Virus record (IMG/VR): IMGVR_UViG_3300036761_003285
Span: 1 to 58,224 of that record
Reading direction: 5' to 3' (one strand)
DNA length: 58,224 bases
Source: a virus
Lineage: Duplodnaviria; Caudoviricetes
This document shows, piece after piece, positions 1,783 to 28,613 of this stretch (position 1 is its first letter; the number at the start of each line of letters is the position of its first letter). The translations under genes were made by a program, and so were the position numbers. The notes under the pieces were generated by a model. That model did no database searches and was not told the DNA's origin. It saw only the letters and a list, made by a program, of their open reading frames with translations.

Positions 1783-2117
1783 AAAAGTACAAGTTGTGGC
1801 TCGACCGAGAGCTGAAAGCACTCAGGTGCTCCAGATGGCCTGAGGCTGCAATTCTGCTTTCTCGATTTCAGTGCCTTGAGTTGAGAGAATCTCTCTTTGG
1901 TGCTCTGGACCACTCAACCAAGCTGAACGCGGTTTTTGTTGAGTTCTCGAATGAGCGCCAGAATCTCCGTTGGTTGGAAAAGCTCGTTCATGAGAGTAGC
2001 AAGTGGAAGCTTCTCTTTGAGTCGACCATTCGGGCAACGCAGATGAGTCAAGAGGAGATAGTTGAGGCGCTTGTTGAATCTCAGATCGACATTGAATTTG
2101 CCGTGAACTTGTCATGA
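1767..2117 (+). CDS. Hypothetical protein, possibly virion-internal
   Basis: ATG at 1767 overlaps the end of the previous gene; stop overlaps the next ATG (ATGA); repeated (L/V)xES motifs. Confidence 0.55.
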   Translation: MQKFVEKYKLWLDRELKALRCSRWPEAAILLSRFQCLELRESLFGALDHSTKLNAVFVEFSNERQNLRWLEKLVHESSKWKLLFESTIRATQMSQEEIVEALVESQIDIEFAVNLS

Positions 2118-3205: not shown

Positions 3206-3225
3206 TCAAAAAGAAGGAGTTAGCC

Positions 3226-8488: not shown

Positions 8489-8857
8489 ATGATCAAGCAT
8501 CTTGAAAAACGAGTTGTTGTTGACAACAGGTACGCACTGACTGATATTCATGTTGACGATTTCGTGGGCCCCGGCCGTCGCCGCTATGGCTTGTGGAAGG
8601 CTCCGGCGATCAAGACACTTCCAGAGCTCCCTCTGAGCGAAGGTACGTACTTTAGGTACACAATCACTGCTGCAGATATCGGACGAATTGATCTCATTGC
8701 TTGGAGACACTATCAGGACGTGAATCTCTGGTGGGTCATTGCCCGGTGTAACGGGATTGCGAACCCGTTTGAGGATTTGGTCATAGGGCGGGTTCTTCTG
8801 ATTCCATACAAAGCGCTGGTGGTACAGGCCATCGAGCAAGGTAGAACTTTCGTATGA
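8489..8857 (+). CDS. LysM-type baseplate wedge protein (gp53-like)
   Basis: RIDLIAWRHY...LWWVIARCNGIANPF...LLIP. Confidence 0.88.
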   Translation: MIKHLEKRVVVDNRYALTDIHVDDFVGPGRRRYGLWKAPAIKTLPELPLSEGTYFRYTITAADIGRIDLIAWRHYQDVNLWWVIARCNGIANPFEDLVIGRVLLIPYKALVVQAIEQGRTFV

Positions 8858-10005
8858 TAATTGCTGATACTGTAGATGTTCAGGTGGGTGGCAACACTGT
8901 GAATTTTCAAAAGGTGGGTTCGCTTTCCGTTCGAGTATTCGAATCGATCTATGGCAAGTCTCAGTATCATCTTCGCTTTATGGACAGGGATGCGTCGCGG
9001 TGGAACAAGATCGCACAACAGACCGATATCTTAGTGAATATACGAATAGGTGCTGTTACGAACGTTGACACAAAGGGATTTTGGTCGAAGTGGAAGGAAG
9101 CAAGAGTTACAGGGTTGAAGCTTGTGTCGACCGCGGACAAGATTGATGTGACAATCACTGCCGAAGACGAGTTTTTTGACTTCAAAAGAAGGGCCACTCA
9201 GCGAGTCTTCATCAAGAAGTCCATTTCGGAGATGATCGAAGCTATTGCCAAAGAATACATTCTTGATACTGACCTGATTGAGACCACTGACAAGTATACA
9301 CTTCGGCAGGGATGGATGACTGATTTTGAGTTTCTTACCGAAGAGTTGCTTCCTCGAGCGCGGGCAAAGAATCCTGAGGAAGTTTTTCTTCTTTACATCA
9401 GACAGGATAGCCCCCCAAAGTTGGTTTTTACTTCGCTGGATAAGCAATCGCGGTCAGGAGAACCAAAGCTGAAGTTTCGTTGGGAGCCCACCGGGGCGTC
9501 GAAATCCGAGTTTGATCCTCTTGGCAGAGCATTCATCACTGAGTATACATCTACAACTAAGTTGGATCCCTCCAACTTCGGGACGAAAACAGTGACATTT
9601 GATGTGAATAAAGCCCAGGGTGTTCCTTACATGGTTTCCTTTCTTGCGAATGATAGTACTTACAACTATCCACTACTCGGAGCAACAAAACCTGACCCGG
9701 TATCGCCCCTGCCCGCAAAAGTGCAGAGCATCTTAATGGACGCTCTCGATCTTGACTTTCCAACTGAGCTCAAGACACGAACAGATTGGAAGTTGCGAAT
9801 GAATGAGCGGGTAGCAATTTCAACTCTACTTCTTCATGCCGCACAGATTGGTGAGATAGCCGAGATTGACGCAAAGGTTGTAGGCGGGCAGAAGCTTTTC
9901 AGCTCAGGAAGATATCTGATCTACGCGCTGTATCATATCATTTCTGGTAGAGGTTCGAAAACACTGACATTCTTGGAGCGTCGTGGTACTGTAAAGGGAA
10001 AATAA
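8854..10005 (+). CDS. Baseplate hub protein (gp27/P2 gpD-like)
   Basis: SISEMIEAIAKEY, LRQGWMTDFEFL, SGRYLIYALYH motifs; follows LysM gene. Confidence 0.75.
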   Translation: MIIADTVDVQVGGNTVNFQKVGSLSVRVFESIYGKSQYHLRFMDRDASRWNKIAQQTDILVNIRIGAVTNVDTKGFWSKWKEARVTGLKLVSTADKIDVTITAEDEFFDFKRRATQRVFIKKSISEMIEAIAKEYILDTDLIETTDKYTLRQGWMTDFEFLTEELLPRARAKNPEEVFLLYIRQDSPPKLVFTSLDKQSRSGEPKLKFRWEPTGASKSEFDPLGRAFITEYTSTTKLDPSNFGTKTVTFDVNKAQGVPYMVSFLANDSTYNYPLLGATKPDPVSPLPAKVQSILMDALDLDFPTELKTRTDWKLRMNERVAISTLLLHAAQIGEIAEIDAKVVGGQKLFSSGRYLIYALYHIISGRGSKTLTFLERRGTVKGK

Positions 10006-10646
10006 TGACCCCACAACAATTTCTACAACTACTCAGACAAAGGAAAGTCAAGTACAAGGTGGTTGATCGTTATGTAGATGTAGAAGGTGACTGTAACATA
10101 GGTGGTCTAGGTCTAGTTGAGATTCCCGTACAGTTTCGTGTAGTTACAGGAAATTTCCACTGTGACCACAACCAACTCACGTCACTAGAAGGAGCTCCTG
10201 TTAGTGTGGGTGGTCGTTTCCACTGTGACCACAACCAACTCACGTCACTCGAAGGAGCTCCTGTTAGTGTAGGTGGAGATTTCTACTGTTATTCCAACCA
10301 ACTCACGTCACTTCGTCGCGGTCCTCGAGATGTAGGTGGAGATTTCTACTGTTATTCCAACCAACTCACGTCACTCGAAGGAGCTCCTGTTAGTGTAGGT
10401 GGTATTTTCTACTGTCACCACAACCTCCTCACGTCACTTCGTCGCGGCCCTCGAGATGTAGGTGGTCGTTTCCACTGTGACCACAACCAACTCACGTCAC
10501 TAGAAGGAGCTCCTGTTAGTGTAGGTGGTGGTTTCTACTGTGACCACAACTCCGTCGAATTCACGGAAGCTGATATCAAACGAGCCATGGAACAGAGTAG
10601 ACATAGTAGTGTTGAAAGTGTGATAGATGGGCTGGTGGGGTGTTGA
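10005..10646 (+). CDS. Leucine-rich repeat protein, copy 2 (complete)
   Basis: Unique N-terminus (VDVEGDCNI...IPVQF), six full 21-aa units plus one partial, same C-terminal tail as copy 1; TAATG coupling to hub gene. Confidence 0.92.
   Translation: MTPQQFLQLLRQRKVKYKVVDRYVDVEGDCNIGGLGLVEIPVQFRVVTGNFHCDHNQLTSLEGAPVSVGGRFHCDHNQLTSLEGAPVSVGGDFYCYSNQLTSLRRGPRDVGGDFYCYSNQLTSLEGAPVSVGGIFYCHHNLLTSLRRGPRDVGGRFHCDHNQLTSLEGAPVSVGGGFYCDHNSVEFTEADIKRAMEQSRHSSVESVIDGLVGC
10182..10640 (+). repeat. 63-bp tandem array plus dispersed direct repeat of 514-648
   Basis: Units at 10182, 10245, 10308, 10371, 10434, 10497; 10506-10640 matches 514-648 with one mismatch. Confidence 0.95.
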
Positions 10647-10648
10647 GT

Positions 10649-13045
10649 ATGGATTTGTATTCACTACTTCCGGCTGTCATCAGATTCAAAGACTCGCTCA
10701 CTAAGGGAAGTGTCGGTGAGGGCGTCGTTGAGCGAATCATCTACATGATGGAGCAGGAAGGAGAAACAACAGGAGATCTCATAGCGGGGTTACTTGATCA
10801 GATCAATCCTGATGAATGCGATGCAAAGTTCTTGATCTACATCTCGTTGACCCTCGGGTTTGCCGTTTCAGAGAATGCCGGTCAACCTCCGTCTGAAGAC
10901 TTTGCCCGTTGGTTTACAAAGAATCTCGTCAATTTCTACAAGATACGCGGGCGTCCGTTCTCATGGAAGAAGCAGTGGCAGTACTTAGAGACTGGTGGTG
11001 ACAGATATCTTGAGGCCTGGGAGCTGTGGAAGGACATTCCATACGAGAGGGGTCACTACTATAGGTACGGCGGCGGGGATGCGTACTATGGGCTACTTCA
11101 TGCTGCCCGTGTAGATCTCTTTAGAGAGATCAGCGGCATCAAAGAGTTCCTGCCTGTTCTCGAAGCCATGGGTCACATGCCTACTATTGAGTGGGTTCGG
11201 CCGATCCATGTTCTGCTTCGGATGAACTACTTCACTCCTGATTTCTACGAGACCGCCGAGTTGATCTCGGATGACAATCGTGATTTTGAAGCGCTTTACC
11301 AGCCCGCAGATCAGTTGTTGAATCCATCAGATGAGTTGGACATCATCATTTCCTGTCTTGCCTCGTGTGAAACAGTGTGTGAGTCCGGGCAAGAAACAGG
11401 CTGCCTGACTTCATGCGAAGCTGATTGTGAACCGATGTACGAAGCAGCCGGCCCGCCCGGCCCGCCCGGACCCCCGGGCCCGCCAGGAGGACCCGGAGCT
11501 GATGGGTGCGACGCATGCGTTCAAGGTGTGGTCTTCCCATCAGATTCAGGAGGGAAGATTGTTATTGTACTTTTCGACTACTTTGAATGCTGGGAAGTGG
11601 GAGAGTTGATCTGCGTTGAGATTCTTGATAAGCCATCTGGTCCTGTCCCGCCCACTGCTCCAAACCTCTTTAAGTTCGAGACAACCATAACCCAGATTGA
11701 GCACTACGGCGGTGTTCTGGCAAAGATTCATCTGGACAAGTTCCAGGCAGGCACAGGCATCAAGACTGATGATTATGCGATTGTGTGCCATGGAGCGTGT
11801 TCTTGTGACGCTTGTGAAACGCAAACAACCTTTGACGCGTCCACAGGAGCTCAGCTAATCACGTTCGAAACTCACAATCCATACTGCTGGCGGAAAGATG
11901 AGCCTGTCTGTGTCTATGTTCCTGATCCTACGTGGAGATATGTCAGTACAGGCAATGTAACACAGAAGCCTACTTTCAATCTGTCAAAAAAGAAGTGGTA
12001 CGTTGAGCTTTCCGTTCAGAAGCCGCCCATTGCCAGCGGAACGATCAATCTGAAGATCGTTATCTGCCATGGAGGGTGCCCTTACACAGGACCTACCGGA
12101 CCTCGTGGTCCTACAGGACCAGCCGGGAGACCCACTGGTTTTACTGGTCCTCAGGGTCCTACAGGACCAGCAGGAGGCGGTACCGGAGGAGGCCCCACAG
12201 GACCAACCGGAGAAACTGGTTGTGACGCGTGTGTCATTGCGACGTATCTCGGAGTGGATGGTTCAGGCAGGATCAAATTCACTGTTCCTGATGATGAGCG
12301 ATGTTGGACTGTGGGAGAAGATGTTTGTGTTTCAAACATCATTCCAACGGGCGGTTCTGAACCGCCAAAGAGATTCACTGGTGTAGTGATTGACAAAGGC
12401 GCTGGATACATCACTACGGACATGCTGAATAGCAATGTGTTCATGGATTGGCAGACAAATGAGAAAGCTACAATCTGTCACGGCCCTTGCGCTTGTGATG
12501 CATGTGAAATCGTTACTGATTATGAGACTGAAAGTGCGGGGAAGTGGCTCAAGTTTTATACACTTCACTACCGGTGCTGGAAGGTAGGAGAATCTGTTTG
12601 TGCAAGTGTGATTTCGTGGAATTACCAATCAGATGGTACGATTGCGTCAGTGACAAGATTGCCCAGCCTAAATTGGGAAGTAAAGATTGATCTGGATCTT
12701 GATCCTGCTCATACTGGTTCCTACATCGGCATTGTGACTGAGATTTGTCATGGGAGTTGTGCTCCTACTGGCCCTACTGGCCCTACTGGTGCAGGTTTTA
12801 CTGGTCCTCGTGGTCCCACCGGTCCTGCGGGAAGTGGTACCGGAGGAGGTGGTCCCGGTACTTGTCCTGCTTGCTCTACATATCCACCTCCGGGAACTAT
12901 GAAAGTGCTCTGGCAGACAACAGGGGGGAGTTATCAAACCTCGAAGCCAACGCTCAAGGCTGGGGCGTTCTGGGAAACGACCTTGTATTGTTCTAATAAC
13001 CAGTACTGTTTGGTAAACGATCAAGTTTGTCTGCCACTGACCTGA
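10649..13045 (+). CDS. Baseplate wedge/tail protein I (gp7/P2 gpI-like) fused to Cys-rich collagen-like fibre
   Basis: MDLYSLLP, INPDECDAKFL, FYKIRG, RPIHV in the N-domain; then CxxxC repeats, (GPP)n and (GPT)n tracts, four CDAC...CW...C...CHGxC domains. Confidence 0.8.
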   Translation: MDLYSLLPAVIRFKDSLTKGSVGEGVVERIIYMMEQEGETTGDLIAGLLDQINPDECDAKFLIYISLTLGFAVSENAGQPPSEDFARWFTKNLVNFYKIRGRPFSWKKQWQYLETGGDRYLEAWELWKDIPYERGHYYRYGGGDAYYGLLHAARVDLFREISGIKEFLPVLEAMGHMPTIEWVRPIHVLLRMNYFTPDFYETAELISDDNRDFEALYQPADQLLNPSDELDIIISCLASCETVCESGQETGCLTSCEADCEPMYEAAGPPGPPGPPGPPGGPGADGCDACVQGVVFPSDSGGKIVIVLFDYFECWEVGELICVEILDKPSGPVPPTAPNLFKFETTITQIEHYGGVLAKIHLDKFQAGTGIKTDDYAIVCHGACSCDACETQTTFDASTGAQLITFETHNPYCWRKDEPVCVYVPDPTWRYVSTGNVTQKPTFNLSKKKWYVELSVQKPPIASGTINLKIVICHGGCPYTGPTGPRGPTGPAGRPTGFTGPQGPTGPAGGGTGGGPTGPTGETGCDACVIATYLGVDGSGRIKFTVPDDERCWTVGEDVCVSNIIPTGGSEPPKRFTGVVIDKGAGYITTDMLNSNVFMDWQTNEKATICHGPCACDACEIVTDYETESAGKWLKFYTLHYRCWKVGESVCASVISWNYQSDGTIASVTRLPSLNWEVKIDLDLDPAHTGSYIGIVTEICHGSCAPTGPTGPTGAGFTGPRGPTGPAGSGTGGGGPGTCPACSTYPPPGTMKVLWQTTGGSYQTSKPTLKAGAFWETTLYCSNNQYCLVNDQVCLPLT

Positions 13046-13047
13046 GT

Positions 13048-14439
13048 ATGTCTTCTCCTTGTGATATTGCTACAAAGATGGGACTTGCCAAGGAAGCGAT
13101 TGACGGCCTTGTTAGTCGCTGTTTCACCGGAGTAACTCCCCCAGCAAAAGTTCCTACAGTTTGGTCTGACATGTGTGGTGACACGAGCGTCAGTCTGGCT
13201 CGCCAGATGTATGTGGATGTCGTGGCCCTGGTGGCAAGAACAGATAACACAGGCCATTTAACTGGTTGGGTTGATCCCGGAGCTCCTCCTACTTGTATCA
13301 CAGGTGCTTGGCTTGATAGCTTCATTGCTGCAGTCAATGCAGTTCTGTGTGAGTGTTGTCCTGATGGGATGGATGATTGCACAAGCAACTATTCTCCCTC
13401 AAGCACGCTTCAGATCAAGATCTGCTATCGTTCAGTCACGCTTACTTGGGACGGGGAAGCTGATGATTATTGGGTTGAGTACTGTTTTGTCGCTCCTCCG
13501 TATCCTTCGTATCCGTATATCTGCCTTCAGAAAACTGAAATGCCCGGTTCGTGTATAAAGTCAGGGAATAGTGGCTGGATAACTCCAAAAACTTACACAA
13601 TCCCTGCTGATACGGCTTGCAGTCGTTCAGAAAACTGGTGCTTGTACTGGCGTGTTAAGCCGAGATGTTGTGACAGAACGGAGGGAGATCCTTGTCCTAC
13701 TTGGGAGGAGGGGCCTTTTTCTGCAATCCAAAAAATACCTGTTGAAAATGGAAACGAGGGGTTCGCACCAGATGGATATCTTGATTGGTATCCGCCCGGA
13801 TCGAACTGTATTCCTTGCAGCGGAAGTTCAAAGCTTTGCGTGAAGTGGAAAGTTGGTCCTTGTTCTCGGCTTCTCAAACTCTGGGTGCGTCTCTTCACTG
13901 GTGGTGGAGCATGGACGGAAATAGTTCTAGATCAAATTGACGTTACAACGCAGAAGCAAGGGCAATCAGAGTATCCAATCAATCCAGCGTGGTGCACAGG
14001 AGGGGGGCCGTATGTGTCCGCGTGTGTTTTTGGAAAAGTATTCTCGAGCTCAGGAGTTGAGTGTGATATTCGTACTACGTCAACACTTCCTTTTCTGCCT
14101 CCTGGTCCTAGTTGTGCTTCGATGAATGGGTGTCAGGGTACTCATCAGCCATGCACGCCCGGGGCGATTTACCCGCTTACTTCATGGATAGTTATTAACG
14201 GAGGTCCAACCAAGAATCTGACGCCGTGGAAATGTGCGGGAGCGCCCGGCGGAGTACTCTACACGGTCTGGAGAGTAGTTGAGACAGTATACAACAGAAC
14301 TTATGCGTACGGGAATGTCAGTCAAGTTGCCACGCCCGACTGCCCGAACGGATTCCAGCTTATTGATCTTCCACCGTCGTGGACCCCCGAATACTTTACA
14401 TATCCCGGTTATATGAGACTTGAACTCGGTTGTTTCTGA
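13048..14439 (+). CDS. Cys-rich putative fibre/accessory virion protein with Fn3-like segment
   Basis: About 30 Cys; VTLTWDG..DYWVEY...YWRVKP Fn3-like pattern; follows fibre gene. Confidence 0.6.
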   Translation: MSSPCDIATKMGLAKEAIDGLVSRCFTGVTPPAKVPTVWSDMCGDTSVSLARQMYVDVVALVARTDNTGHLTGWVDPGAPPTCITGAWLDSFIAAVNAVLCECCPDGMDDCTSNYSPSSTLQIKICYRSVTLTWDGEADDYWVEYCFVAPPYPSYPYICLQKTEMPGSCIKSGNSGWITPKTYTIPADTACSRSENWCLYWRVKPRCCDRTEGDPCPTWEEGPFSAIQKIPVENGNEGFAPDGYLDWYPPGSNCIPCSGSSKLCVKWKVGPCSRLLKLWVRLFTGGGAWTEIVLDQIDVTTQKQGQSEYPINPAWCTGGGPYVSACVFGKVFSSSGVECDIRTTSTLPFLPPGPSCASMNGCQGTHQPCTPGAIYPLTSWIVINGGPTKNLTPWKCAGAPGGVLYTVWRVVETVYNRTYAYGNVSQVATPDCPNGFQLIDLPPSWTPEYFTYPGYMRLELGCF

Positions 14440-14441
14440 CA

Positions 14442-15311
14442 ATGAAGCTGCTCGAAAACGCCCACATGCCATACGTAGCGGTGATAAGCTCCGTCCCCCA
14501 TCTGTTCTTCTGCAGAGGGAGCAGGAAAACATCCACTTTTGGAGAAAGTACGTATTCATATGTGGACTGGCACATATACTGCGCTCTTCTTAGAGACCCT
14601 TCAATTTCTGTTCAACTCGCGCAAGGGCGTTTTGTTGAACCAGTAATTCAGTGCAACCCCTGTGTGCGCACTGAAGAAGGGCTGGTAAAACTAAGCTTTG
14701 TTTGTTCGGAAGTTCGAAGAAACACACCAACAAATTACTTGCTTTACACTCTGTCGGGCTCTTCTCTTGCTGATCTTAGCAATTTCTCTTTTGTGAACAT
14801 AGGTGCATACAGAATGTTCAACGGCGTGACACTTTCTGGTTGTACTGTTTTCTGCCGTTTGAGTGATATTCGTGTGAATCGAAAGGACGGTGGAGTAGAT
14901 GCGTTTCGAACCAGTTTTGATGAGGTGCTTCGAGTAATTCAAGGACGAAGCTCTTCAGAGATTATTGTCACCGGAAGGTCTGGTGCGGAGTATCGATCAG
15001 TTCTGTTTGATCTCGAAGACTACAAGTGTAAAGGGGAGATTTTTGCCGATCGAAATCCCGTGTACAAATGCTGTATCTATGGTGACAAAGTCTATCACGC
15101 TGTTCGAACAGGAGACTTTGAGGGCCGAGAGATTCACTCAGGGGATTTGTCGATTGAGCCTTGTAACATAACATTCACAGTTTCAGACAATTTGCGAAAT
15201 TCGCAACGTCCAGTTTCCGACAGAGAGATCATGACAAAGATCTTGTCTATGGGCGTGAATAACATGTCTGCTGGAGTTCTCAAAGGTCTCCTTGAAAAGG
15301 AGTTGGTATAA
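14442..15311 (+). CDS. Hypothetical protein (beta-rich)
   Basis: Long ORF coupled to both neighbours. Confidence 0.7.
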   Translation: MKLLENAHMPYVAVISSVPHLFFCRGSRKTSTFGESTYSYVDWHIYCALLRDPSISVQLAQGRFVEPVIQCNPCVRTEEGLVKLSFVCSEVRRNTPTNYLLYTLSGSSLADLSNFSFVNIGAYRMFNGVTLSGCTVFCRLSDIRVNRKDGGVDAFRTSFDEVLRVIQGRSSSEIIVTGRSGAEYRSVLFDLEDYKCKGEIFADRNPVYKCCIYGDKVYHAVRTGDFEGREIHSGDLSIEPCNITFTVSDNLRNSQRPVSDREIMTKILSMGVNNMSAGVLKGLLEKELV

Positions 15312-15754
15312 TGGGTTGTTGTGGAGACAAAGTCCCGAAGGTGCACTCGTTGCAGGCGGTAGTGGTAAACACACCACAAAACTTGATTCCTGTTACCTCT
15401 GTTCCTCCAATCAATCCAGAACTGAGGCTTCAGTTCGAGGCTTTTATTCGAGGTGGTGAGGTCACCCGCCCCTCTTGCAAGAACTGTGCTTGCAAACATC
15501 TTTCCCAGGCTCGCGCAATCATCAGCGAGAAGCAGAAAGCTCCTGAGTACAGACACTACTACTGGTTTGCCATGGGTCACATTGCCGAAGCAGAGGACGA
15601 GCTCGTTCGTTCCTACCCACAGATGGCTGCGGTGATCCGAGCAGAACGACTCAAGCTTGAGCATGACCCAAACTACTTGATATCTTTCGAGAGTCTAGTT
15701 GATGCCGTAACAAGCCTGCCCGACGCACAATTTGGGCCTGCAGAGAAGAAGTGA
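15311..15754 (+). CDS. Hypothetical Cys/His protein
   Basis: MGCCG start; CKNCACKHL and GHIAEAEDE motifs; AGGAG SD. Confidence 0.75.
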   Translation: MGCCGDKVPKVHSLQAVVVNTPQNLIPVTSVPPINPELRLQFEAFIRGGEVTRPSCKNCACKHLSQARAIISEKQKAPEYRHYYWFAMGHIAEAEDELVRSYPQMAAVIRAERLKLEHDPNYLISFESLVDAVTSLPDAQFGPAEKK

Positions 15755-15760
15755 GGGGTA

Positions 15761-17926
15761 ATGGCTTTGTGGTACGAGTGCGGTGCTGGATTTGTAAAAA
15801 CCCAAGTTGCCAGGGCAACAATTGGGGCAGATGTTTACTTGTGTTGCCCCGGGCCCTCTCTTGCCAAAGTCAATGATTTAGATCTTCATATTCCCGGAGT
15901 GGTGGTAGCCGCAATCAACACAGCATATCCAAAGATTAGACCGAATATCTGGTTGGGATTGGATGAACCGCAGTGTTACGACCGTCGCCTGTGGTTTGAG
16001 GGATTTGTGAAGATTACTCGAGGAAATTATAAGTTACTTGAGTGTGAAGGGAAGCCCATCAAAGATCTACCTTTCGTGTTTTTTGCTGACTGTGATTCAC
16101 CGAGTGCTGGAATTCGTGAAGTTGACTACATCCTTCAGCAGCGCGCTCACGATGTGAGGTTTGTTTGGGCGAAGAACACCTTGGTGTTTGCAATTCATGT
16201 TCTTGTGTGGTTAGGGGCTCGAAAGATCCATTTTGTTGGTTGTGATATGGGCGGGAACAAAGACTACTACGATTCTCGCATTCTTTCTGATGAAGAGCGG
16301 GCGAAGAATCAACTGCTCTATACACAGCAAGTTGAGTGGTTGCGTGAGTTTGTCCTGAAAGCCAAGGTTAGTGCAATCGAGTGCGTCAGTTGTACGGAAG
16401 GGTCTCCGTTGAATTCGATTATGCCATTTGTTCAACTAAGTGATGCTCTGAAAGCCTCTCGGAAACAGGCGCCCGAAGAGGCAGGTGAACTGATGCATTC
16501 GTCGAAATCATTTGAAGTTACAGCGACTCGAGAGTGGGCTAATGTTGTTCCTACGATTCCCGAAGCTGTGATGGTGGGAATCTCAAAGGCTGATGAAGAT
16601 CTCATTGATTGGTGGTGGTATTGGTTTTCAAAGACAAACTCTTACCCCGTACAGTTTGTTGATTTTGGCATGTCTGAAGAGGCCAGAAAGAAGTGTCGTT
16701 CTCTTGGTACTGTGATAGATCTCAATGACCCAATCAAAGAAGACGGGCAGCGGGGCTCGCTGAGAAAGCCGTTTGCTGCGCTTCTGACACACGCTGCACG
16801 GACAGTTTTCACAGATATTGATGCCGAGATTCGTGGCAATCTTGTATCTTTGTTCAAGCAAGATCTTGGTCCTCGAAAGTTCGCTGCAGCACAAGATTGG
16901 GCTGCTTCGCTAGCCTATCGAAAGAAAAACCCAAACACGGGACCTGTCATTTGCTCGGGTGTGTTTGTCTTTGATTACGGATCTGAAGTTGTAAAGAAGT
17001 GGGCTGATGCCATTCATACCCAGAAGGCAAAGTACAATGGTGATCAGTTGTATCTCAATGAGCTCTACTACAAGTGCGGCCTGTCAGACATCGTCCTTCT
17101 TGATGGCAAGGTTCATCGAACGCCACAGGAAGGCGATGATCCCGGAGTGTTGATCATGCACTACGGGGGCACGGCAAAGAATGCAGCCAGACGCGCGTGG
17201 GCTGCATTCAATTCAGGAATTCTTAGTGACCTATCCAAGGCCTATGAGTACAACTGGCGCCAGGCTTCGTTCAGTTTCACAAGAGGTGTAATTCTGGGGG
17301 CAGATCAAGCACAGGAGTGGATGCTCGAATGGTGGTGGGAGAACTACGATGCGCATAATACTCTACCTGTTTGCTTTGTTGATTTTGGTATGACCAAAGG
17401 GGCGCTTGATTGGTGCAGGCATCACGGAACAGTTACAGACCCAATTCACTTTGGTGGATACGCATGGTTCAAGAAGCCTTTGGCTACACTTGAAACCGTA
17501 TTTGCGAAAACGATCTGGCTCGATATAGACTGCCAAGTTCTGGGCAATCTTGATCCGCTCTTTGAGTACTGTAAAAGCAACGGTATCGGCATGACAGTGG
17601 ATCGAGGAACACCTGATCGGTACAAGCAGAGGTTGCCTCCCGAGGCAACCATCTACAACAGCGGCTGCATCGTGTACAACTTCAGAGACCCGGTCATGCC
17701 CCAGTGGGCGAAGATGACAGCGATCGTCTACGAGCAGCAGCCCGGGGATCAAGAAACGCTGGCACTGACGCTCAGAAGGTATGCAGTCGGCAGGATTCGT
17801 TCTATACCGAAAGAGCTTGTTCGACTACGCCTCGAAGAAGACGGCCCATGTATTGTGAGGCATTGGACTGGGCCCGTCGGCAAGGACAGAATCAGAGCAA
17901 TGAGTGTACAGGCAGAACTCAGATGA
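15761..17926 (+). CDS. Multidomain glycosyltransferase: Maf/DUF115-like domain plus two GT-A (GT8-like) domains
   Basis: CPGPSL...AIN and GARKIHFVGCD in the N-domain; two WWW...FVDFG...KP...DID...(N/C)SG...DQ...H domains. Confidence 0.75.
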   Translation: MALWYECGAGFVKTQVARATIGADVYLCCPGPSLAKVNDLDLHIPGVVVAAINTAYPKIRPNIWLGLDEPQCYDRRLWFEGFVKITRGNYKLLECEGKPIKDLPFVFFADCDSPSAGIREVDYILQQRAHDVRFVWAKNTLVFAIHVLVWLGARKIHFVGCDMGGNKDYYDSRILSDEERAKNQLLYTQQVEWLREFVLKAKVSAIECVSCTEGSPLNSIMPFVQLSDALKASRKQAPEEAGELMHSSKSFEVTATREWANVVPTIPEAVMVGISKADEDLIDWWWYWFSKTNSYPVQFVDFGMSEEARKKCRSLGTVIDLNDPIKEDGQRGSLRKPFAALLTHAARTVFTDIDAEIRGNLVSLFKQDLGPRKFAAAQDWAASLAYRKKNPNTGPVICSGVFVFDYGSEVVKKWADAIHTQKAKYNGDQLYLNELYYKCGLSDIVLLDGKVHRTPQEGDDPGVLIMHYGGTAKNAARRAWAAFNSGILSDLSKAYEYNWRQASFSFTRGVILGADQAQEWMLEWWWENYDAHNTLPVCFVDFGMTKGALDWCRHHGTVTDPIHFGGYAWFKKPLATLETVFAKTIWLDIDCQVLGNLDPLFEYCKSNGIGMTVDRGTPDRYKQRLPPEATIYNSGCIVYNFRDPVMPQWAKMTAIVYEQQPGDQETLALTLRRYAVGRIRSIPKELVRLRLEEDGPCIVRHWTGPVGKDRIRAMSVQAELR

Positions 17927-18585
17927 AGCAAGGTGTTCTAGTTGGTTGTTCGAGAGAGCAAGAGGACTTGCTCGAATGGTGGTGGGGGTGCTACAGTAAG
18001 CACAATACCCTTCCAGTCTGTTTTGTCACTTACGAGTTTGATCTAAAGGACAGTCTTCGTTTGTTGGAAAGAGGCGAAGTGGTTCAAAGTAACGAACCTT
18101 TCTCCAAAGGGACATTCAGGAAGGTGACAGCATTTAGTTTGTCGCCATTTGATGTTAATCTCTGGCTGGATCTTGACTGTGAAGTTCGAGGCGATCTCAG
18201 TCCGATTTTCTCGCTCTTTTCCTCGGGTTGTGTTTTCTGCCCCCGGGGCCCTCGCAAGTGCGGAACAAATGATCCATATGGTTGGTTCAAGATGTGTAAC
18301 TCCGGGTCATGGGTGAGAGATACTGGTCTCATTCTTGCTGATCGAGACGGTCGTTTGTATCGAAAGTGGTTTGCTGATGTGCAAGCTTTCAGCCATATGT
18401 ATCACGGTGAAAACGAGACGCTTGTGGTTGTTGCTGACCGTGAAGGACTTCCGATTGGCGAGGTTTCAGATCAGATGTTTCAATCGTGTCATCTTAATGT
18501 ATACCCGAATCCACTCGTGTTCCACTGGATCGGAGGCCGCGGGAAGTATCTACTCAGAGAGAGGATCGCCCGTGAAAGACTTTGA
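17923..18585 (+). CDS. GT-A glycosyltransferase (third paralogous domain)
   Basis: EWWW...NTLPVCFV, WLDLDCEVRGDL, HWIG; ATGA coupling. Confidence 0.75.
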   Translation: MKQGVLVGCSREQEDLLEWWWGCYSKHNTLPVCFVTYEFDLKDSLRLLERGEVVQSNEPFSKGTFRKVTAFSLSPFDVNLWLDLDCEVRGDLSPIFSLFSSGCVFCPRGPRKCGTNDPYGWFKMCNSGSWVRDTGLILADRDGRLYRKWFADVQAFSHMYHGENETLVVVADREGLPIGEVSDQMFQSCHLNVYPNPLVFHWIGGRGKYLLRERIARERL

Positions 18586-20962
18586 AGTTATTAACCCTAT
18601 TATTACTGGGAAACAAGAGCTGAGCTACCGAACAGGGCAAGGGAAGTATTATCACTTCAACGTGAGGGGTGATACTTTTGCTCTTGATGTGAACTCACTG
18701 ATGTTAATTCGAGGCCTGAAAGAGAATCTACCTCCTCCAAGTGACGAAGTTTCTCAGTTTCCATTCTGTCCTAATCGCAATGTGCTGGCACTTCTATTCT
18801 GTCTTACTCATCAGTGCAATCTGAAGTGCAAGTATTGTTACGTTGATCGGTTGTATTCATCTAACGATCGGATGACTCCCGAGATTGCCGCTACAGCGTT
18901 GACAACCTTGGTCAATCCTGATGCTGTGAGAAAGCAGGGGCTTCGGATCAGCTTTTTCGGAGGAGAGGCACTACTTGAATTCGAACTTCTCAAGCAGATT
19001 GTCTCGCTAGTCAGAACAGCTTTCCCGTCCCCCTGCCCTGTGCAGTTCAGTCTCACGACGAACGGGACGTTGTTGACTAAACCGATTGCTAAGTTCTTGG
19101 TTGAGCATAGCTTTTCAGTGATACTCTCGTTGGATGGCCCTCGTGAGCTCCACAATGAGACACGAATCTCTAGAGGAGGAGCGGGCTCCTTTGATGTTGC
19201 TCTTGAAGGACTCACTTTGTTGAACGAAGTAGCTCTGAAGAAGATTACTCTGAGAGCAACTTTCTTTCCCGAAAATCCTCGAATCATGGAGCGATTGGTG
19301 TTCTTGAATGCACTTTGTGATCAGGGCTTGGCTGCGAATGTCTCAATTGAACCTTCGATCTTGACTGAAAGTGAATGTGCCGCACAAGAGATTGATCAGT
19401 TTCAGGACAAGATCAACGCGGCAAGACTCGAGGCTGAGTACGCTGAGGCTACTGATTGGCTCCTCGGGCGATTGCGGCAGAAGAAGCCTGCGCGTTTCCA
19501 CAATATCATGCTCTATGCTGAGCGATTACTCTATCGTCGAAAGTACTGCAGTGATTGCGGAGCTGGCGTTGGGTATATCTCCATAGGACCAACAGGGAAG
19601 ATCTTTGCCTGCCACAGAGAGACCAACAGCTTGATCGGTGATCTCTCTCAGGGAGGGATAGACGAAGCACTAAGAGCACAGTGGGTAGACAATCGCTACT
19701 ATGTCAACAAAGAGTGTCGGCGGTGTGATCTTCGAAACGTTTGCGGAGGAACTTGCCGAGAGCATTCGCTTGGATCAATGGGTGATATCTTTGATGTTGA
19801 TCCGGTTCGTTGTACTTTCAAGCGACTGTGGATCCACTCAGCTGTGTATCTGATCTCCGAGCTTCCATCTGCTGATCGGACAAGTCTGATTCTGCAGAAG
19901 AAGCCACAGAAGGTCGAACTTCCTGATTCAAAGAAGGAGCGGTTCAACCTTGTTCGGGAAGCTGGCGGGTTTGGTGATATCATCTCCATTGGAGGTGCTG
20001 CTGTTCAGATCAAGAAGGAGTTCCCGAACTCGGAGATTTGCTTGTACTTGCCTGATGATTTCGTTGATGTTGCGAAGCATCTTCGTGAAATCGACCAAGT
20101 AGTAGGTCTTGGTTCTGTTGAGACACTATCTAAGCAACGTCGTGTTCGAGGCGAGAAGTTTGATTCTGGAAAGTACACATACCTTTCGAAAGTGGCTAAC
20201 CGGGGCTTAGTTGTTGATCTCTGGTGTCCTGCAGTCAAGTACGAGCAGCAAGAGAAGGATCGCATTCAGCACACACGTTCGCAGATCTTTGCAAGTGTGA
20301 TATGTAAGGAAGACTCACATGCGATTCCTCGTTGGTTCTCAACTCCTGCAGAACGTGTAAAAGCAAGTAGCTATCTGAACAAGGCATTTGGAGATCCTAG
20401 TGATACTGGACCAACAATCGCCCTGGCTGCAAGAGGCACAAAGGCGGAGAAGAATATTTCAGAGCACCATTTGCAGGATCTGCTTACTTGGTTGATCTCT
20501 AAGAACAGCAATGTTGTGTGGATGGATTGTTTGGATCCCTCTGTCATTCTACACGGGTTTGCCAACAACAAGATAGTTTGGCCGAATGTATCATTCTGTG
20601 AATCCGTAGCAATTCTCGAGCAGTGTGATCTTCTCATTTCTGTTGATACTGGAATCTTTCATGCTGGTGTGGCTGCTCGAGTTCCTACTGTTGGTGTGTT
20701 TGGGATGACAGATGGGAACCCTTATATTGGATTCTACCCCTTGACGTACGTCGTACAGAATGAAGTGCCCCATGAAGGCATTTGCACGATACCTTGCAAT
20801 TCATCTTCGGAAAAAGGACACATTGTAGGTTGTAGTCTGGCATGCGCGCGGATGCAGAACTTGTCGTTTGATGAGTTGAAGCTGGCTGTTCTTTCGGCAA
20901 TGAAGACGGCATCAGCTCCTCAGTTTCAGGAGTACCGGTTGCGCCTATTTGATGAGAAATGA
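18572..20962 (+). CDS. Radical SAM/SPASM maturase (SCIFF/CteB-like) fused to GT9 glycosyltransferase domain
   Basis: ALDVNS N-terminal motif; CNLKCKYC; FFGGEALL; TTNGTLL; SLDGPRELHN; SPASM CGAG..IFACH, CRRC...VCGGTC...C. C-terminal GGFGDII, ISVDTGIFH, VPTVGVFG. GTG at 18572 follows an AGGA SD. Confidence 0.9.
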   Translation: MKDFEVINPIITGKQELSYRTGQGKYYHFNVRGDTFALDVNSLMLIRGLKENLPPPSDEVSQFPFCPNRNVLALLFCLTHQCNLKCKYCYVDRLYSSNDRMTPEIAATALTTLVNPDAVRKQGLRISFFGGEALLEFELLKQIVSLVRTAFPSPCPVQFSLTTNGTLLTKPIAKFLVEHSFSVILSLDGPRELHNETRISRGGAGSFDVALEGLTLLNEVALKKITLRATFFPENPRIMERLVFLNALCDQGLAANVSIEPSILTESECAAQEIDQFQDKINAARLEAEYAEATDWLLGRLRQKKPARFHNIMLYAERLLYRRKYCSDCGAGVGYISIGPTGKIFACHRETNSLIGDLSQGGIDEALRAQWVDNRYYVNKECRRCDLRNVCGGTCREHSLGSMGDIFDVDPVRCTFKRLWIHSAVYLISELPSADRTSLILQKKPQKVELPDSKKERFNLVREAGGFGDIISIGGAAVQIKKEFPNSEICLYLPDDFVDVAKHLREIDQVVGLGSVETLSKQRRVRGEKFDSGKYTYLSKVANRGLVVDLWCPAVKYEQQEKDRIQHTRSQIFASVICKEDSHAIPRWFSTPAERVKASSYLNKAFGDPSDTGPTIALAARGTKAEKNISEHHLQDLLTWLISKNSNVVWMDCLDPSVILHGFANNKIVWPNVSFCESVAILEQCDLLISVDTGIFHAGVAARVPTVGVFGMTDGNPYIGFYPLTYVVQNEVPHEGICTIPCNSSSEKGHIVGCSLACARMQNLSFDELKLAVLSAMKTASAPQFQEYRLRLFDEK

Positions 20963-21798
20963 AAACGATTGACGTTGCTGTTTTCGTGAGGGACAGATAC
21001 GAGCATCTCGTGTTCTGTACTTCCTGGTTGAAGAACAGCAAGGAGTGCCCCGGAGTCGTGTTTAATCGGGTTGCCTATGACGACAGTAGTGCTGATTCAA
21101 GGGTTGGCGAGTTTCTTGGGGGTTCATATGACAAAGTAGAGTCGGTGCCGAGAGAAGTCACTGCTGTTGATCCTGAGCAGCGAATCGGATGGGCGCGGAG
21201 ATTGGCAGTACAGAACTTCCTGAAAAAGTCGATTGCAAACTTTCTGCTGCTTCTCGATAGTGATATCATCGTCACAAAAGAAACAATTGCAGAAGCTGTA
21301 AGAGATTACGAGGCGCTTAATGATTGGGTTGAGGTCGGAGGAGGTACCCTCTACGCCATCAGTCATACAACCGGGCAGATTCATGCGAACGGGAAACACT
21401 TCTCGAAGGTGGCTCTTACAGGTGATGCCCATATGCTGTTCAAGAGAGAGCATCTTGAGCGCATTGGAAACCACTTCAGTACGAAGCCAAAAGGATTTGC
21501 TGACAACCAGATTCAAGCGATTCGTGATCAAGGTAAGGTCTACTTTACTCGTATCAGTCCTCCTTATCAAGTGCAACACATTGGGTTCGGTGAGGGCGTA
21601 TCACTTGTCTACAAGCAGGAGAAGTTCAAACCCTCGTGGACAATGCGACCGTACTGGACCCATGAATCTAATCGAAGGATTCTTCAGGTGGAGAACTTTG
21701 ACGTATTACACTACATCAATTGCATCAATGCTGTGGGCGGCATCAGCGCACCTGAGGAGTACACGAAAACCAAAGGAATAGCCAATGAACACAAGTGA
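20959..21798 (+). CDS. GT2-like glycosyltransferase
   Basis: VAVFVRDRYEHL, YDDSS, LLLDSDII, VQHIG. Confidence 0.75.
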   Translation: MKTIDVAVFVRDRYEHLVFCTSWLKNSKECPGVVFNRVAYDDSSADSRVGEFLGGSYDKVESVPREVTAVDPEQRIGWARRLAVQNFLKKSIANFLLLLDSDIIVTKETIAEAVRDYEALNDWVEVGGGTLYAISHTTGQIHANGKHFSKVALTGDAHMLFKREHLERIGNHFSTKPKGFADNQIQAIRDQGKVYFTRISPPYQVQHIGFGEGVSLVYKQEKFKPSWTMRPYWTHESNRRILQVENFDVLHYINCINAVGGISAPEEYTKTKGIANEHK

Positions 21799-22231
21799 TG
21801 TGGTACGGAAAGAACTTCGGGGTGAAGTTGTCTTCACACAGGTTTCTGCCTTCGGTGAGCGCCGTTTAGTACAGACAAATCTAGTTGTTAACAACGCCTA
21901 CAGGCAGCTTGCATATCTTCTTGGGTATACAAGCCTTGCCTGTGTCAATCGCATGCGATTCGGAACCAGTGGGACCGCGCCGGCAATGGGAGATCTCAAC
22001 GTCGTTCCCGTACCGGCTGTTGGTTTTCTCGTTACCACTAACACCTTTCCTAGTGCCACAAGTGTGAAGTTCACAGCGAGTTGGGGCCCGGCAGAATCAT
22101 CCCCGGCGTCCTTTCAAGAGGTGGGCCTTTTCTCCTCTGACGGCATACTGGTTGCACGAGTTGTGTTTTCTCCAATGATGAAGTCTGTCGGGTGGACCTG
22201 GACGATCGAATGGACGCTGGCATACGTATGA
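21785..22231 (+). CDS. Tail-collar/fibre-attachment baseplate protein, paralogue 1
   Basis: NLVVN...FGTSGTAP...QEVGLFSSDG.LVARVVF..K pattern. Confidence 0.7.
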   Translation: MNTSDVVRKELRGEVVFTQVSAFGERRLVQTNLVVNNAYRQLAYLLGYTSLACVNRMRFGTSGTAPAMGDLNVVPVPAVGFLVTTNTFPSATSVKFTASWGPAESSPASFQEVGLFSSDGILVARVVFSPMMKSVGWTWTIEWTLAYV

Positions 22232-22238
22232 GGTGAAT

Positions 22239-22673
22239 ATGAAAGGCAGATTGGTCGTTTCTGAGCACAACCTGAAAACAGGGAAGCGTCGAGTGGTTGT
22301 TGACGTACAGAACATGATTCTGAACAACATGTACGAGCAGTTCATCAAGTTGTTCGGATGTGCGGGGAATGAGGCTTACTTGGCCAAGATGATCTTTGGG
22401 ACGGGGAACGATGCCCCTGATCCTACTCAGAGCTTTCTCAGTCGTCCCATCACTCCTGCAAAGAATGTGATTTGCACTGTTGATCCAGTCAACTATTCGG
22501 TGCTGGCTACTGCATCACTGCTATCTGATGAGGGAAATGGCTTTCCGATTTCCGAAGCTGGCCTGCTGACCTACGACAACGTTCTGGTCACTCGAGCGGT
22601 TTTCGATACTAGGATGAAGACTTCAGATTTTGTATTCAATTTCAACTGGACGGTCTATACCAAGGCACCGTAG
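22239..22673 (+). CDS. Tail-collar/fibre-attachment baseplate protein, paralogue 2
   Basis: NMILN...FGTGNDAP...ISEAGLL...LVTRAVF..KTSD; GAGGTG SD. Confidence 0.7.
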   Translation: MKGRLVVSEHNLKTGKRRVVVDVQNMILNNMYEQFIKLFGCAGNEAYLAKMIFGTGNDAPDPTQSFLSRPITPAKNVICTVDPVNYSVLATASLLSDEGNGFPISEAGLLTYDNVLVTRAVFDTRMKTSDFVFNFNWTVYTKAP

Positions 22674-24453: not shown

Positions 24454-25122
24454 ATGGATTCAAAGTTTGATGGTGTAATCATTGTCAGCGGGGGTTTGGA
24501 TTCTACAACTCTTCTGTATCATCTTGTCAAGCAGAATCTCAAGATCACGGCACTCAGTTTCGACTACGGTCAGCGTCACTCAAGAGAACTCGTTTGTGCC
24601 TGCTGGCAGTGTGACTCCCTGAAGGTTCCTCACAAGATCATTGATCTCGGTAACATCAAGCAGCTTCTTCAGGGCAGTTCTCTCACTAGTCCTGAGATTG
24701 TCACACCTGAGGGGCACTACGCGCAGGAGAACATGAAGTTGACGGTTGTTCCAAACAGGAACATGATCATGTTATCCTTAGCGATCGCCTGTGCAATCTC
24801 TCTCAAGGCACCCAAGGTGTGGTATGGCGCTCACGCCGGAGATCACGCAATCTACCCAGATTGCCGCCCGGCGTTTGTCAAGGCCATGCAGAGGACGGCT
24901 GATCTTTGTGACTGGAATCCTGTTGACATCGAAGCTCCCTTTCTGGGAATCGACAAGGCTGGGATTGTTTCGATAGGTCTCGAGCTGGGTGTGAGGTACG
25001 ACCAGACCTGGACCTGCTACAGTGGCAGGGAGAAAGCCTGTGGGAAGTGTGGTTCTTGCAGTGAGCGGCTCGAAGCGTTTGAGAAGAACCATTTGAAGGA
25101 TCCACTTGAGTATGAGCATTGA
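24454..25122 (+). CDS. queC: 7-cyano-7-deazaguanine synthase
   Basis: SGGLDSTT, YGQRH, VPNRN, YPDCRP, CY...CGKCGSC.ER. Confidence 0.97.
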   Translation: MDSKFDGVIIVSGGLDSTTLLYHLVKQNLKITALSFDYGQRHSRELVCACWQCDSLKVPHKIIDLGNIKQLLQGSSLTSPEIVTPEGHYAQENMKLTVVPNRNMIMLSLAIACAISLKAPKVWYGAHAGDHAIYPDCRPAFVKAMQRTADLCDWNPVDIEAPFLGIDKAGIVSIGLELGVRYDQTWTCYSGREKACGKCGSCSERLEAFEKNHLKDPLEYEH

Positions 25123-28607: not shown

Positions 28608-28613
28608 GTGACC

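Follow-up and report, generated by a model that had tools for sequence, protein, structure and literature searches.

The stretch of DNA examined in this study (hereafter called the window) is an entire IMG/VR virus record, IMGVR_UViG_3300036761_003285, which comprises 58,224 bases and is estimated to be ~66% complete. The long open reading frames (ORFs) of the window are all on the + strand, and a run of these genes at 10005-22673 (+ strand) contains a proposed baseplate-attached fibre protein, which we call FIB, together with a fusion protein composed of a radical S-adenosylmethionine (SAM)/SPASM enzyme and a GT9-like glycosyltransferase; this fibre protein and this enzyme are the main subjects here. 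From a gene for a leucine-rich-type repeat protein on, the genes of the run are separated by +2, +2, +2, -1, +6, -4, -14, -4, -14, and +1 nucleotides (nt), and a gap of 188 nt closes the run after 22673. The original prediction, made from the letters of this DNA, had described a near-gapless and coupled run holding two Cys-rich putative virion proteins, two proteins without a proposed function, several glycosyltransferases and the radical SAM/SPASM-GT9 fusion, with structural genes on both sides. Every element of this inventory was found where it had been placed, and the flanks are indeed structural, with baseplate wedge genes before the run and a pair of tail-collar-fold proteins at its end. 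The features that matter most for the following argument are these:

10649..13045, + strand: FIB, the proposed baseplate-attached fibre protein, 798 amino acids (aa), from its translation and its map of Cys and Gly-X-Y
11354..11428, + strand: proposed target tract of the radical SAM enzyme in FIB, CxxxCExxCE-x5-GCxxxCExxCE, after the gpI-like domain and before the first collagen run
18572-20962, + strand: fusion protein of radical SAM/SPASM and GT9-like parts, with a GTG start and AGGA upstream, equal in length to the database entry
18572..19933, + strand: radical SAM/SPASM domain of the fusion, aa 1 to ~454
19934..20962, + strand: GT9-like (heptosyltransferase-like, GT-B) domain of the fusion, PF01075

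FIB contains 36 Cys residues (4.5%) and is laid out as a P2 gpI-like domain (aa 1 to ~200), a short tract in which Cys recurs at every fourth position (the Cxxx tract), collagen-like runs, and Cys-bearing modules; namely, Gly-X-Y runs with much Pro and Thr occur five times, and a module of ~100 aa with the pattern CxxC...CW..GE..C...CHGxC occurs four times. The gpI-like domain is recognised through the family, in that Tail_P2_I (PF09684) is matched by four of ten aligned FIB homologs (26-57% identical to FIB; best E-value, 4e-11). The window copy of FIB gave no match to PF09684, and its N-terminal domain found no usable match in the ESM Atlas, while the tail-fibre matches of FIB in PHROGs are confined to the collagen stretch at aa 483-573. 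The tract itself holds six Cys residues at positions 236, 240, 244, 252, 256, and 260 (aa 236-260). In the alignment of ten FIB homologs, C240, C244, C256, and C260 are invariant, C236, C252, and E257 are nearly so, and all ten proteins keep a Cxxx tract directly after the gpI-like domain at a fixed position. Among the real genes of the 58-kb window, the motif CxxxCxxxC occurs in FIB only (n = 2). The run offers no space for a stand-alone precursor gene, as its gaps are not longer than 6 nt, and no candidate for one was found: every small ORF with Cys residues falls within another gene, in a different frame.

The N-terminal half of the fusion protein matches Radical_SAM (PF04055) in Pfam with an E-value of 3.8e-13 and 50.4 bits (cut-off, 29.5), and also Fer4_12. 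Its CxxxCxxC motif (C82/C86/C89) and its GGE motif (G130-G131-E132), both of which mark the radical SAM superfamily, are invariant in 13 sequences. The SPASM motif, which holds two auxiliary clusters, has seven Cys residues in the arrangement Cx9-15Gx4C ... Cx2Cx5Cx3C ... C, and the corresponding residues of the fusion (C329, G342, C347, C382, C385, C391, C395, and C414) are likewise invariant. A separate SPASM-domain match is not listed for the window protein, but many of its relatives have a precomputed match to PF13186. Among the models of NCBIfam, the best matches of the fusion are PapB (8.9e-55), SCIFF (1.7e-50), nif11 (3.6e-50), and the QhpD type (1.4e-48), all below the respective cut-offs, and the closest solved structure is that of CteB (5wgg; E-value, 2.2e-36 over aa 70-427, with an alignment extending to residue 448). 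By sequence comparison, therefore, the best matches of the fusion to hidden Markov models (HMMs) and to structures are all Cys-thioether maturases. There are eight full-length relatives of the fusion with 37-67% identity, and relatives of the radical SAM part without the fusion are 37-41% identical.

The C-terminal half of the fusion matches PF01075 at 1.8e-7 with 31.2 bits, above the cut-off of 22, which places it in GT9. When a profile of this GT9-like family was compared with the PDB, WaaC was matched over its full length (1e-19; positions 6-260) and WaaF at 1e-16, and the match to TibC was weak (0.006-0.011) and covered only ~100 residues. An N-terminal G-D motif is aligned with that of WaaC, its Asp being nearly invariant, and four Cys residues near the C-terminus are invariant.

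We then collected related loci. A scan with a single-sequence query found none; a scan of viral contigs with an alignment of the radical SAM enzyme provided 80 viral loci, of which the closest 16 are numbered L002-L017, and the same alignment provided a metagenome control of 80 loci with radical SAM relatives of 24-39% identity. A tract was counted when at least four Cys residues stood at an exact spacing of four residues on the strand of the enzyme. The original prediction had asked for the SPASM enzyme and CxxxC baseplate proteins to be compared across phage genomes, and the two were found together: such a tract is present on the strand of the radical SAM gene in 50 of the 80 viral loci (22 upstream, 26 downstream, and 2 overlapping, mostly within ~1 kb) and in 9 of the 80 control loci, the latter including three of the six closest ones (L196, L197, and L201). 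Without filters for strand and diversity, the viral count is 51/80. The tracts of the 80 viral loci number 146 on the strand of the radical SAM gene vs 3 on the opposite strand. Among the closest 16 viral loci, 12 have long tracts and L009 has a short one; the short form, in which two CxxxCxxxC groups are followed by collagen, is found in the window, P0121, P0122, and L009. At L002 and L005, no tract was present in the 4.7 kb and 1.3 kb, respectively, that these loci hold upstream of the enzyme.

In the relatives, the proteins encoded just upstream of the radical SAM enzyme are arrays of C-E/Q/T-x-x units, and several of them share the N-terminal domain of FIB. The arrays can be very long, as in L010 (1591-3438; 615 aa with 131 Cys) and L012 (1460-3667; 735 aa with 151 Cys), where Cys makes up ~21% of either protein and almost all units are C-E/T-x-x. 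Over 634 repeat units, the residue following Cys (+1) is Glu in 50%, Gln in 26%, and Thr in 18%, which together make up 94%. ORFs with a tract are 332 aa long in the median and 2645 aa at most, and their products are therefore proteins and not leader-core peptides.

A scan in the reverse direction was made on viral contigs with the DNA pattern (C[EQ]xx)5, and 80 loci are listed out of 115 stretches. Among those listed, all six loci with a radical SAM match (L082, L095, L099, L109, L128, and L160) have a tract of diverse units in an adjacent ORF; three of these are on new contigs, and L109, L128, and L160 share contigs with L012, L073, and L044. Nine listed loci have diverse units in ORFs of at least ~150 aa, with L084, L104, and L153 ending at the edge of the locus. 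Most of the listed loci are, judged by eye, tandem DNA repeats of 12 nt that give the pattern in one frame or another (e.g., CEVFCEVF). Such 12-nt repeats that read as CExx/CQxx occur in many viral contigs including giant-virus bins (many of the loci L085-L158) with no radical SAM gene nearby, and are a trap for pattern searches of this kind. In total, the pairing of tract and enzyme spans at least three radical SAM lineages: the clade of the window, true members of TIGR04115, and other PapB-like enzymes.

These comparisons also bear on which Cys residues the enzyme would act upon. The other ~30 Cys residues of FIB and the Cys residues of CYS2 (a second Cys-rich protein of the run, described below) were considered as conserved targets and rejected, because they are missing from L003, L008, and L016, which retain the enzyme. 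The likely target of the radical SAM enzyme, as far as alignments can tell, is thereby narrowed to aa 236-260 of FIB, and the remaining Cys residues of FIB and those of CYS2 may form disulfides or bind metals. The idea in the original prediction that the phage repurposes the chemistry of ribosomally synthesized and post-translationally modified peptides (RiPPs) on its own fibre thus gains support from the co-occurrence, but the target has shrunk to the tract of six Cys residues.

The order of genes that recurs in the closest 16 viral loci (from BLAST and HMM searches) is gpI-like/Cxxx protein(s), radical SAM, GT9-like, GT2-like, and the collar pair. The radical SAM and GT9-like parts are fused in the window and in the eight database relatives, and are split but adjacent in L003, L005, L010, L011, and L016. 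A GT9-like gene is present in 16 of the 160 viral and control loci, all of them among the closest radical SAM relatives (the 16 closest viral loci contribute 11, and the 6 closest metagenome loci contribute 5). Maf/GT8 genes are present in only 3 of the 160. In L008, the GT2-like enzyme and a tail-collar-fold domain are encoded together as one ORF of 429 aa (13197-14486). Genes resembling those for ADP-heptose synthesis adjoin the module at two loci; namely, L011 has next to its GT9-like gene a heptose-7-phosphate kinase like rfaE/HldE domain I (12234-13235; 3.7e-62 vs 3.3e-25 for ribokinase), and L006 has before its radical SAM gene a protein with a HAD phosphatase and an adenylyltransferase like rfaE/HldE domain II (9009-9917; 8e-34). 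In a tblastn search of the window with these L011/L006 ADP-heptose genes and with a second radical SAM gene, no counterpart was found, and Pfam searches of ten downstream window proteins gave only replication and recombination genes, with no sugar-nucleotide gene among those scanned.

Some further observations were made at these loci. L010 has at 3482-4606 a second and divergent radical SAM/SPASM protein (PapB, 1.8e-14; SPASM, 3.3e-10) between the Cxxx protein and the main radical SAM enzyme. L231 has at 87-4385 an ORF of 1433 aa with a Maf-like domain (E-value, 9e-92) that ends right before a radical SAM gene, the product of which is 38% identical to the radical SAM enzyme of the window, so that the order of glycosyltransferases followed by the radical SAM gene echoes that of the window. 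Small Cys-containing proteins of 66-153 aa are encoded directly upstream of the radical SAM gene in L005 (998-1198), L015 (9643-9912), L012 (3585-4043), and L016 (9408-9869); they show no mutual similarity in BLAST at 1e-3, the L016 copy has no family match, and they are possibly accessory or zinc-ribbon proteins.

The remaining genes of the run from FIB on are as follows:

13048..14439, + strand: CYS2, a Cys-rich orphan protein of 463 aa with 30 Cys
14442..15311, + strand: protein of 289 aa
15311..15754, + strand: protein of 147 aa with the N-terminus MGCCG
15761..17926, + strand: three-domain glycosyltransferase of 721 aa, from an AlphaFold2 model, Foldseek, and the PF01973 family
17923..18585, + strand: stand-alone GT8-like GT-A glycosyltransferase of 220 aa, from paralogy
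20959..21798, + strand: GT2-like GT-A glycosyltransferase of 279 aa
21785..22231, + strand: tail-collar-fold protein of 148 aa, the first paralog, phrog_5417
22233..22673, + strand: tail-collar-fold protein of 146 aa, the second paralog and last gene of the run, phrog_5417

The 721-aa protein was modelled by AlphaFold2 with a mean predicted local distance difference test score (pLDDT) of 93.3 and has three domains: a Maf/MptE-like domain (aa 1 to ~240) and two GT8-like GT-A domains (aa ~260-480 and ~500-721) with a DxD motif each. The Maf-like domain is matched by PF01973 (MptE-like), which we take to be the old DUF115/Maf family, in 10 of 16 relatives (36-48% identity; best E-value, 2.6e-9), and the copy of the window reaches 18.5 bits vs a cut-off of 34.6; a profile of this domain gave weak matches to the Campylobacter sialyltransferase Cst-II (0.003-0.03). 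With the GT-A domains, Foldseek found LARGE1, GlyE, the glycosyltransferase domains of LH3, LgtC, glycogenin, and the catalytic domain of UGGT, and the template modelling (TM) scores by target of 0.56-0.61 at E-values of ~1e-8 for LgtC, glycogenin, and the UGGT catalytic domain identify a GT8-like GT-A fold; no acceptor can be deduced from matches as generic as these. The match to the GT8 model of Pfam reaches 16.8 bits, below the cut-off. The 721-aa protein has 1098 homologs at an E-value of 0.001 or lower and found nothing in a sequence search of the PDB. Both of its GT-A domains have a paralog in the 220-aa protein (BLASTP E-values, 1e-19 and 2e-18; 27% identity), which retains the DxD motif as LDLDC; the motif is thus present in all three GT-A copies.

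The 279-aa protein scores 17.6 bits with PF00535 (GT2; cut-off, 23.3), and a profile of seven members matched two GT2 structures, chondroitin synthase (1e-7) and SpsA (4e-4); its DDxS.D and DxD motifs (D41, D42, D100, and D102) are invariant. In total, one tail operon accordingly encodes six glycosyltransferase domains, which represent four folds. As to the collar pair, a model of the 148-aa protein (pLDDT, 83.9) matched in Foldseek a baseplate hub chain of a haloarchaeal tailed virus (9h4p_BD; 2.3e-5) and, in BFVD, viral proteins that bear the name of tail fibre or of tail collar fibre (1e-4 to 3e-7). Neither member of the pair matched Pfam including PF12571, and an atlas search showed PF12571 in 15% of one neighbouring cluster. 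The domain names given in the original prediction were all right, but those of Maf-like, GT2, and tail collar hold at the level of family or fold and not by a direct match of the window copy.

For CYS2, a search of 5.8 billion proteins and of the related loci L002-L017 yielded no homologs, the proteins that take its place in L009 and L016 are not similar to it, and no family of Pfam, PHROGs, or NCBIfam is matched; judging from where its gene lies, CYS2 may serve as a distal portion of the fibre or in receptor binding. The 289-aa and 147-aa proteins also have no match in Pfam, PHROGs, and NCBIfam and no homolog in L002-L017.

Before FIB, the following genes lie in order:

8489-8857, + strand: gp25-like wedge protein, from PHROGs
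8854-10005, + strand: protein of 383 aa without assignment
10005-10646, + strand: leucine-rich-type, Cys-containing repeat protein of 213 aa, from a 63-nt tandem repeat

The last of these has ~6 repeats of 21 aa (80% matches), each with one Cys and an NQLTSL motif, gives two weak matches to PHROGs of unknown function, and has the baseplate genes on one side and FIB on the other. Upstream of the run lie genes for a tail sheath (phrog_23; 9e-96), for a baseplate hub, and for the gp25-like wedge; the genes downstream encode QueC, a clamp-like protein, a polymerase of family A whose N-terminus carries a uracil-DNA glycosylase (UDG) domain, a clamp loader, and a gp32-like protein, followed further downstream by RecA, a SNF2 helicase, and SbcCD-like proteins. 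The source virus is a contractile-tailed phage (an uncultured myovirus). Megablast found no relatives among deposited DNA, and tblastn with the fusion against deposited phages hit only 14 unannotated records of uncultured "Bacteriophage sp." with 26-36% identity, with no cultured relative. The QueC homolog (24454-25122; PF06508, 4e-64) lies 1.8 kb past the tail operon, is kept in L002 (57% identity), and suggests, from its sequence, a 7-deazaguanine modification of the phage DNA. The polymerase gene at 28608-31202 encodes a protein of 864 aa in which a domain of the uracil-DNA-glycosylase superfamily is joined to a 3'-5' exonuclease and a family A DNA polymerase, and the first ORF of the window (1-663), which is truncated at its 5' end, encodes 220 aa with 10 Cys (4.5%).

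Taken together, we propose with a probability of roughly one half that the run is a virion-maturation module within a tail-fibre operon, in which the radical SAM enzyme staples the tract of FIB and the glycosyltransferases decorate the fibre. FIB would be made with its P2 gpI-like domain for attachment to the baseplate and with a short Cys-x-x-x tract at the root of the collagen-like shaft, the tract having six Cys residues and a Glu after every second or third one, and would presumably be present in the virion. The radical SAM/SPASM half of the fusion would remove a side-chain hydrogen of the residue after or near each Cys, mostly Glu, and the sulfur of the Cys would then be joined to that carbon; the thioether rings formed in this way would be redox-inert, like those that PapB, CteB, and QhpD make in their own substrates. 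The outcome would be a rigid joint that resists protease and reductant; in the window, it would be a joint of six links between the baseplate-binding domain and the collagen shaft, and in the relatives with tens to more than 100 repeats, the same chemistry would give a whole stapled rod. In the arrays of C-E-x-x, each Cys has Glu at i+1 and i+5, and PapB is described in PMC12373016 as linking Cys to Asp/Glu located C-terminal of the Cys, at i+1 to i+7. The high proportion of Glu, Gln, and Thr at +1 in the relatives fits Cys-to-Glu thioethers of the PapB/QhpD type.

The GT9-like half, probably with ADP-heptose, would decorate the same fibre, as would the GT2-like enzyme and, in the phage of the window, the Maf-like/GT8-like enzymes, and the Thr-rich collagen runs and/or the tract would be the likely glycan sites. 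A common substrate of the GT9-like enzyme and the maturase is suggested because the two are fused or adjacent and because the GT9-like genes are limited to the closest loci, and ADP-heptose is favoured as the donor because HldE-like genes adjoin the module in L011 and L006. The phage thus probably glycosylates its own fibre. The sequences themselves show the order of the genes, the identities of the domains, the conserved tract, and its occurrence together with the enzyme, and the relation of enzyme to substrate, the thioether chemistry, the acceptor residue, and the sugar are what we infer from these genes. In a broader form, which we hold only tentatively and at somewhat less than even odds, many uncultured phages build fibres or other large virion parts from 6 to ~150 Cys-x-x-x units that a radical SAM enzyme converts to serial thioether macrocycles, and in the clade of the window the product is then heptosylated by the fused GT9-like enzyme.

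Several observations weigh against our proposal. That FIB is in the virion and carries a crosslink and a glycan is a prediction from genes. The tract of the window is short, and with its six Cys residues it falls below the search pattern of four Cys used for the other loci; L014, moreover, has the enzyme module with no tract within 10 kb upstream and is a true exception. Many of the 80 viral loci are near-duplicates (L028-L030, L032-L034, and L036; L011/L013), and the 50 tract counts are therefore not independent events. The fusion stays below the curated cut-offs of all the named maturase families, with 186.2 vs 340 bits for PapB (NF047865), 172.3 vs 425 for SCIFF (TIGR03974), 75.4 vs 350 for TIGR04115, and 166 vs 453 for the QhpD type, so that its chemistry is not readable from family membership. 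It is accordingly conceivable, while in our view quite unlikely, that the radical SAM enzyme modifies the tract by another chemistry such as alpha-carbon sactionine formation, formylglycine formation, epimerisation, or interchain links between Cys and carbon; the fusion also has matches to sactipeptide (RumMC, 1.4e-26), anSME (3.3e-27), and cyclophane-forming families, and the Gln that occupies 26% of the +1 positions is no known acceptor of PapB, nor is Thr, the two making up 44% of the units. The top four HMM matches and the best structure are nonetheless enzymes forming Cys-to-side-chain thioethers, and Glu beside Cys fits PapB/QhpD. Formylglycine is made from Cys by anaerobic sulfatase maturases, whose motif C/S-x-P/A-x-R is missing from the tract. 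Another proposal, that the Cxxx tracts are metal-binding or disulfide elements needing no enzyme, would leave the radical SAM enzyme to act on a host protein, a peptide encoded elsewhere, or the DNA/queuosine pathway, and would reduce adjacency to operon packing. Regularly spaced Cys residues can bind metals, QueC of the 7-deazaguanine pathway is encoded 1.8 kb downstream, and in a record that is ~66% complete a precursor gene could lie outside. This proposal appears highly improbable to us, since tract and enzyme stay together across at least three radical SAM lineages while tracts are nearly absent in the metagenome control, since the curators of NCBIfam have independently defined a CXXX-repeat target family for one lineage, and since the fusion matches peptide maturases and not QueE.

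The glycosylation part of our proposal is the weaker one. L009 has the fibre, the radical SAM enzyme, and the collar pair without any glycosyltransferase, so that stapling and glycosylation, which the original prediction had joined in one system, are separable, and glycosylation is not obligatory for the module. Furthermore, GT9, GT8, and GT2 are the classic set for synthesis of the lipopolysaccharide (LPS) core, and the glycosyltransferases could therefore act on the host envelope; that is, the radical SAM enzyme would act on the fibre tract, but the glycosyltransferases would remodel host glycans (LPS core, capsule, or flagellin) for superinfection exclusion or release of progeny and leave the virion unglycosylated. 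The best GT9 matches are to the LPS enzymes WaaC (1e-19) and WaaF (1e-16), far ahead of the protein-acting TibC (0.006), the GT8 and GT2 folds are common in the synthesis of LPS and polysaccharides, and the L009 locus and the rarity of Maf/GT8 genes (3/160 loci) also speak in this direction. We regard such a role as unlikely, given that the GT9-like enzyme is fused to the maturase in the window and its eight relatives, adjacent wherever the two are split, and present only in the closest of the 160 loci, and given that the GT2-like enzyme of L008 is fused to a tail-collar-fold protein and that all of the genes lie inside a translationally coupled tail operon. It might also be asked whether the Cxxx proteins are virion parts at all and not a secreted or released RiPP-like product, e.g., a polymer of bacteriocin-like or adhesive character that is made during infection. 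Of the large Cxxx proteins, eight from distant loci have no tail-fibre or other structural PHROG but only phrog_8917 (of unknown function) and one amidase match, so that the word "fibre" is supported only for the gpI-like subgroup, and the radical SAM relatives are maturases of natural products. In the subgroup of the window, however, the tract sits in a protein with Tail_P2_I and collagen between genes for the baseplate wedge and the tail-collar fold, and tract-bearing ORFs with a median of 332 aa and a maximum of 2645 aa do not encode leader-core peptides; we hence give a released product very little credence.

Among known systems, the nearest in kind is the pair TIGR04115/TIGR04114 of NCBIfam, in which a radical SAM/SPASM enzyme likewise stands beside a protein with Cys residues at a spacing of four, and such a neighbour is found in the window as well (FIB aa 236-260). 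To our knowledge, this pair has been defined in silico only. True members of TIGR04115 occur at the distant viral loci L026, L031, L055, L059, and L074 (353-407 bits; cut-off, 350) beside Cxxx proteins, and one protein neighbouring such a member reaches the cut-off of TIGR04114. The repeats are C-S/T/G-G-x beside the members of TIGR04115 but C-E/Q/T-x-x in the clade of the window, of which the Cxxx proteins (FIB, L010, and L008) gave no match to TIGR04114; unlike TIGR04115, furthermore, the clade of the window has a GT9-like partner, a GT2-like enzyme, the collar pair, and a tract inside a Tail_P2_I protein. On these comparisons, the radical SAM lineage of the window is distinct from TIGR04115 and carries no name, and the pairing is one that has been recognised in silico for one lineage.

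PapB/PapA, the ranthipeptide system of freyrasin, is the best match in NCBIfam and resembles the module in that Cys and acidic residues of its target are at a short and regular spacing. PapA is a short leader-core peptide, whereas the tract of the window is inside a structural protein of 798 aa and the enzyme carries a glycosyltransferase domain. CteB, the SCIFF maturase with the closest solved structure (PDB 5wgg/5why), links Cys to Thr; it has the SPASM architecture with three clusters in common with the fusion and differs in its N-terminal region before the core (~94 residues vs ~69 in the fusion). The thioethers made by QhpD link Cys to Asp/Glu within a protein subunit that remains part of a larger assembly, and QhpD/QhpC is hence a precedent for stapling a structural protein rather than a natural product; QhpC is, however, a small subunit of an enzyme and has only a few links, and the proposed target of the fusion is a repeat array in a virion protein. 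The GT9 fold is common to the heptosyltransferases acting on LPS (WaaC/WaaF) and on protein (TibC/AAH), the former of which are the closer in the window; TibC has a Cys cluster, and the fusion differs from all of these by its link to a radical SAM enzyme and by its four C-terminal Cys residues. Maf proteins glycosylate flagellin, and BclA is a collagen-like glycoprotein; the window resembles these systems in its Maf-like domain and Thr-rich Gly-Pro-Thr runs but differs in the coupling to a radical SAM enzyme. That phage glycosyltransferases decorate virion proteins of mycobacteriophages is in print (PMC11256854).

The original prediction knew of no described phage system combining such elements. 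Our literature searches brought up no publication in which a radical SAM maturase is connected with a virion protein of a phage (supplementary tables were not covered by this search), no paper that joins the CXXX repeat and radical SAM, and none relevant for TIGR04115, and yet the in silico pair TIGR04114/TIGR04115 exists. In PMC2853527 and PMC12801897, phage radical SAM genes are treated as metabolic or antibiotic-synthesis genes. What is known is therefore a radical SAM/SPASM enzyme with a Cys-repeat target, and what is new here is the substrate within a baseplate-attached fibre, the fusion of maturase and glycosyltransferase, and the conserved place in a tail operon.

The crosslinks of the HK97 capsid are autocatalytic, and if the arrays are indeed stapled, they would represent the first covalent crosslinking of a virion protein that is installed by an enzyme and the largest known modification of the RiPP type, made on a structural protein and not on a secreted peptide. 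For the enzymology of RiPPs, this would provide natural substrates in which the tandem sites number from tens to hundreds, as well as a maturase that shares one polypeptide with a glycosyltransferase, and for annotation, it suggests that some of the phage radical SAM genes are genes of structural maturation. The idea is directly testable with two synthetic genes. Thioethers outlast the reducing conditions that break disulfides, which could explain their use in a fibre. Phages would then harden their host-recognition apparatus by the radical chemistry of peptide natural products, which would be a new principle of virion maturation.

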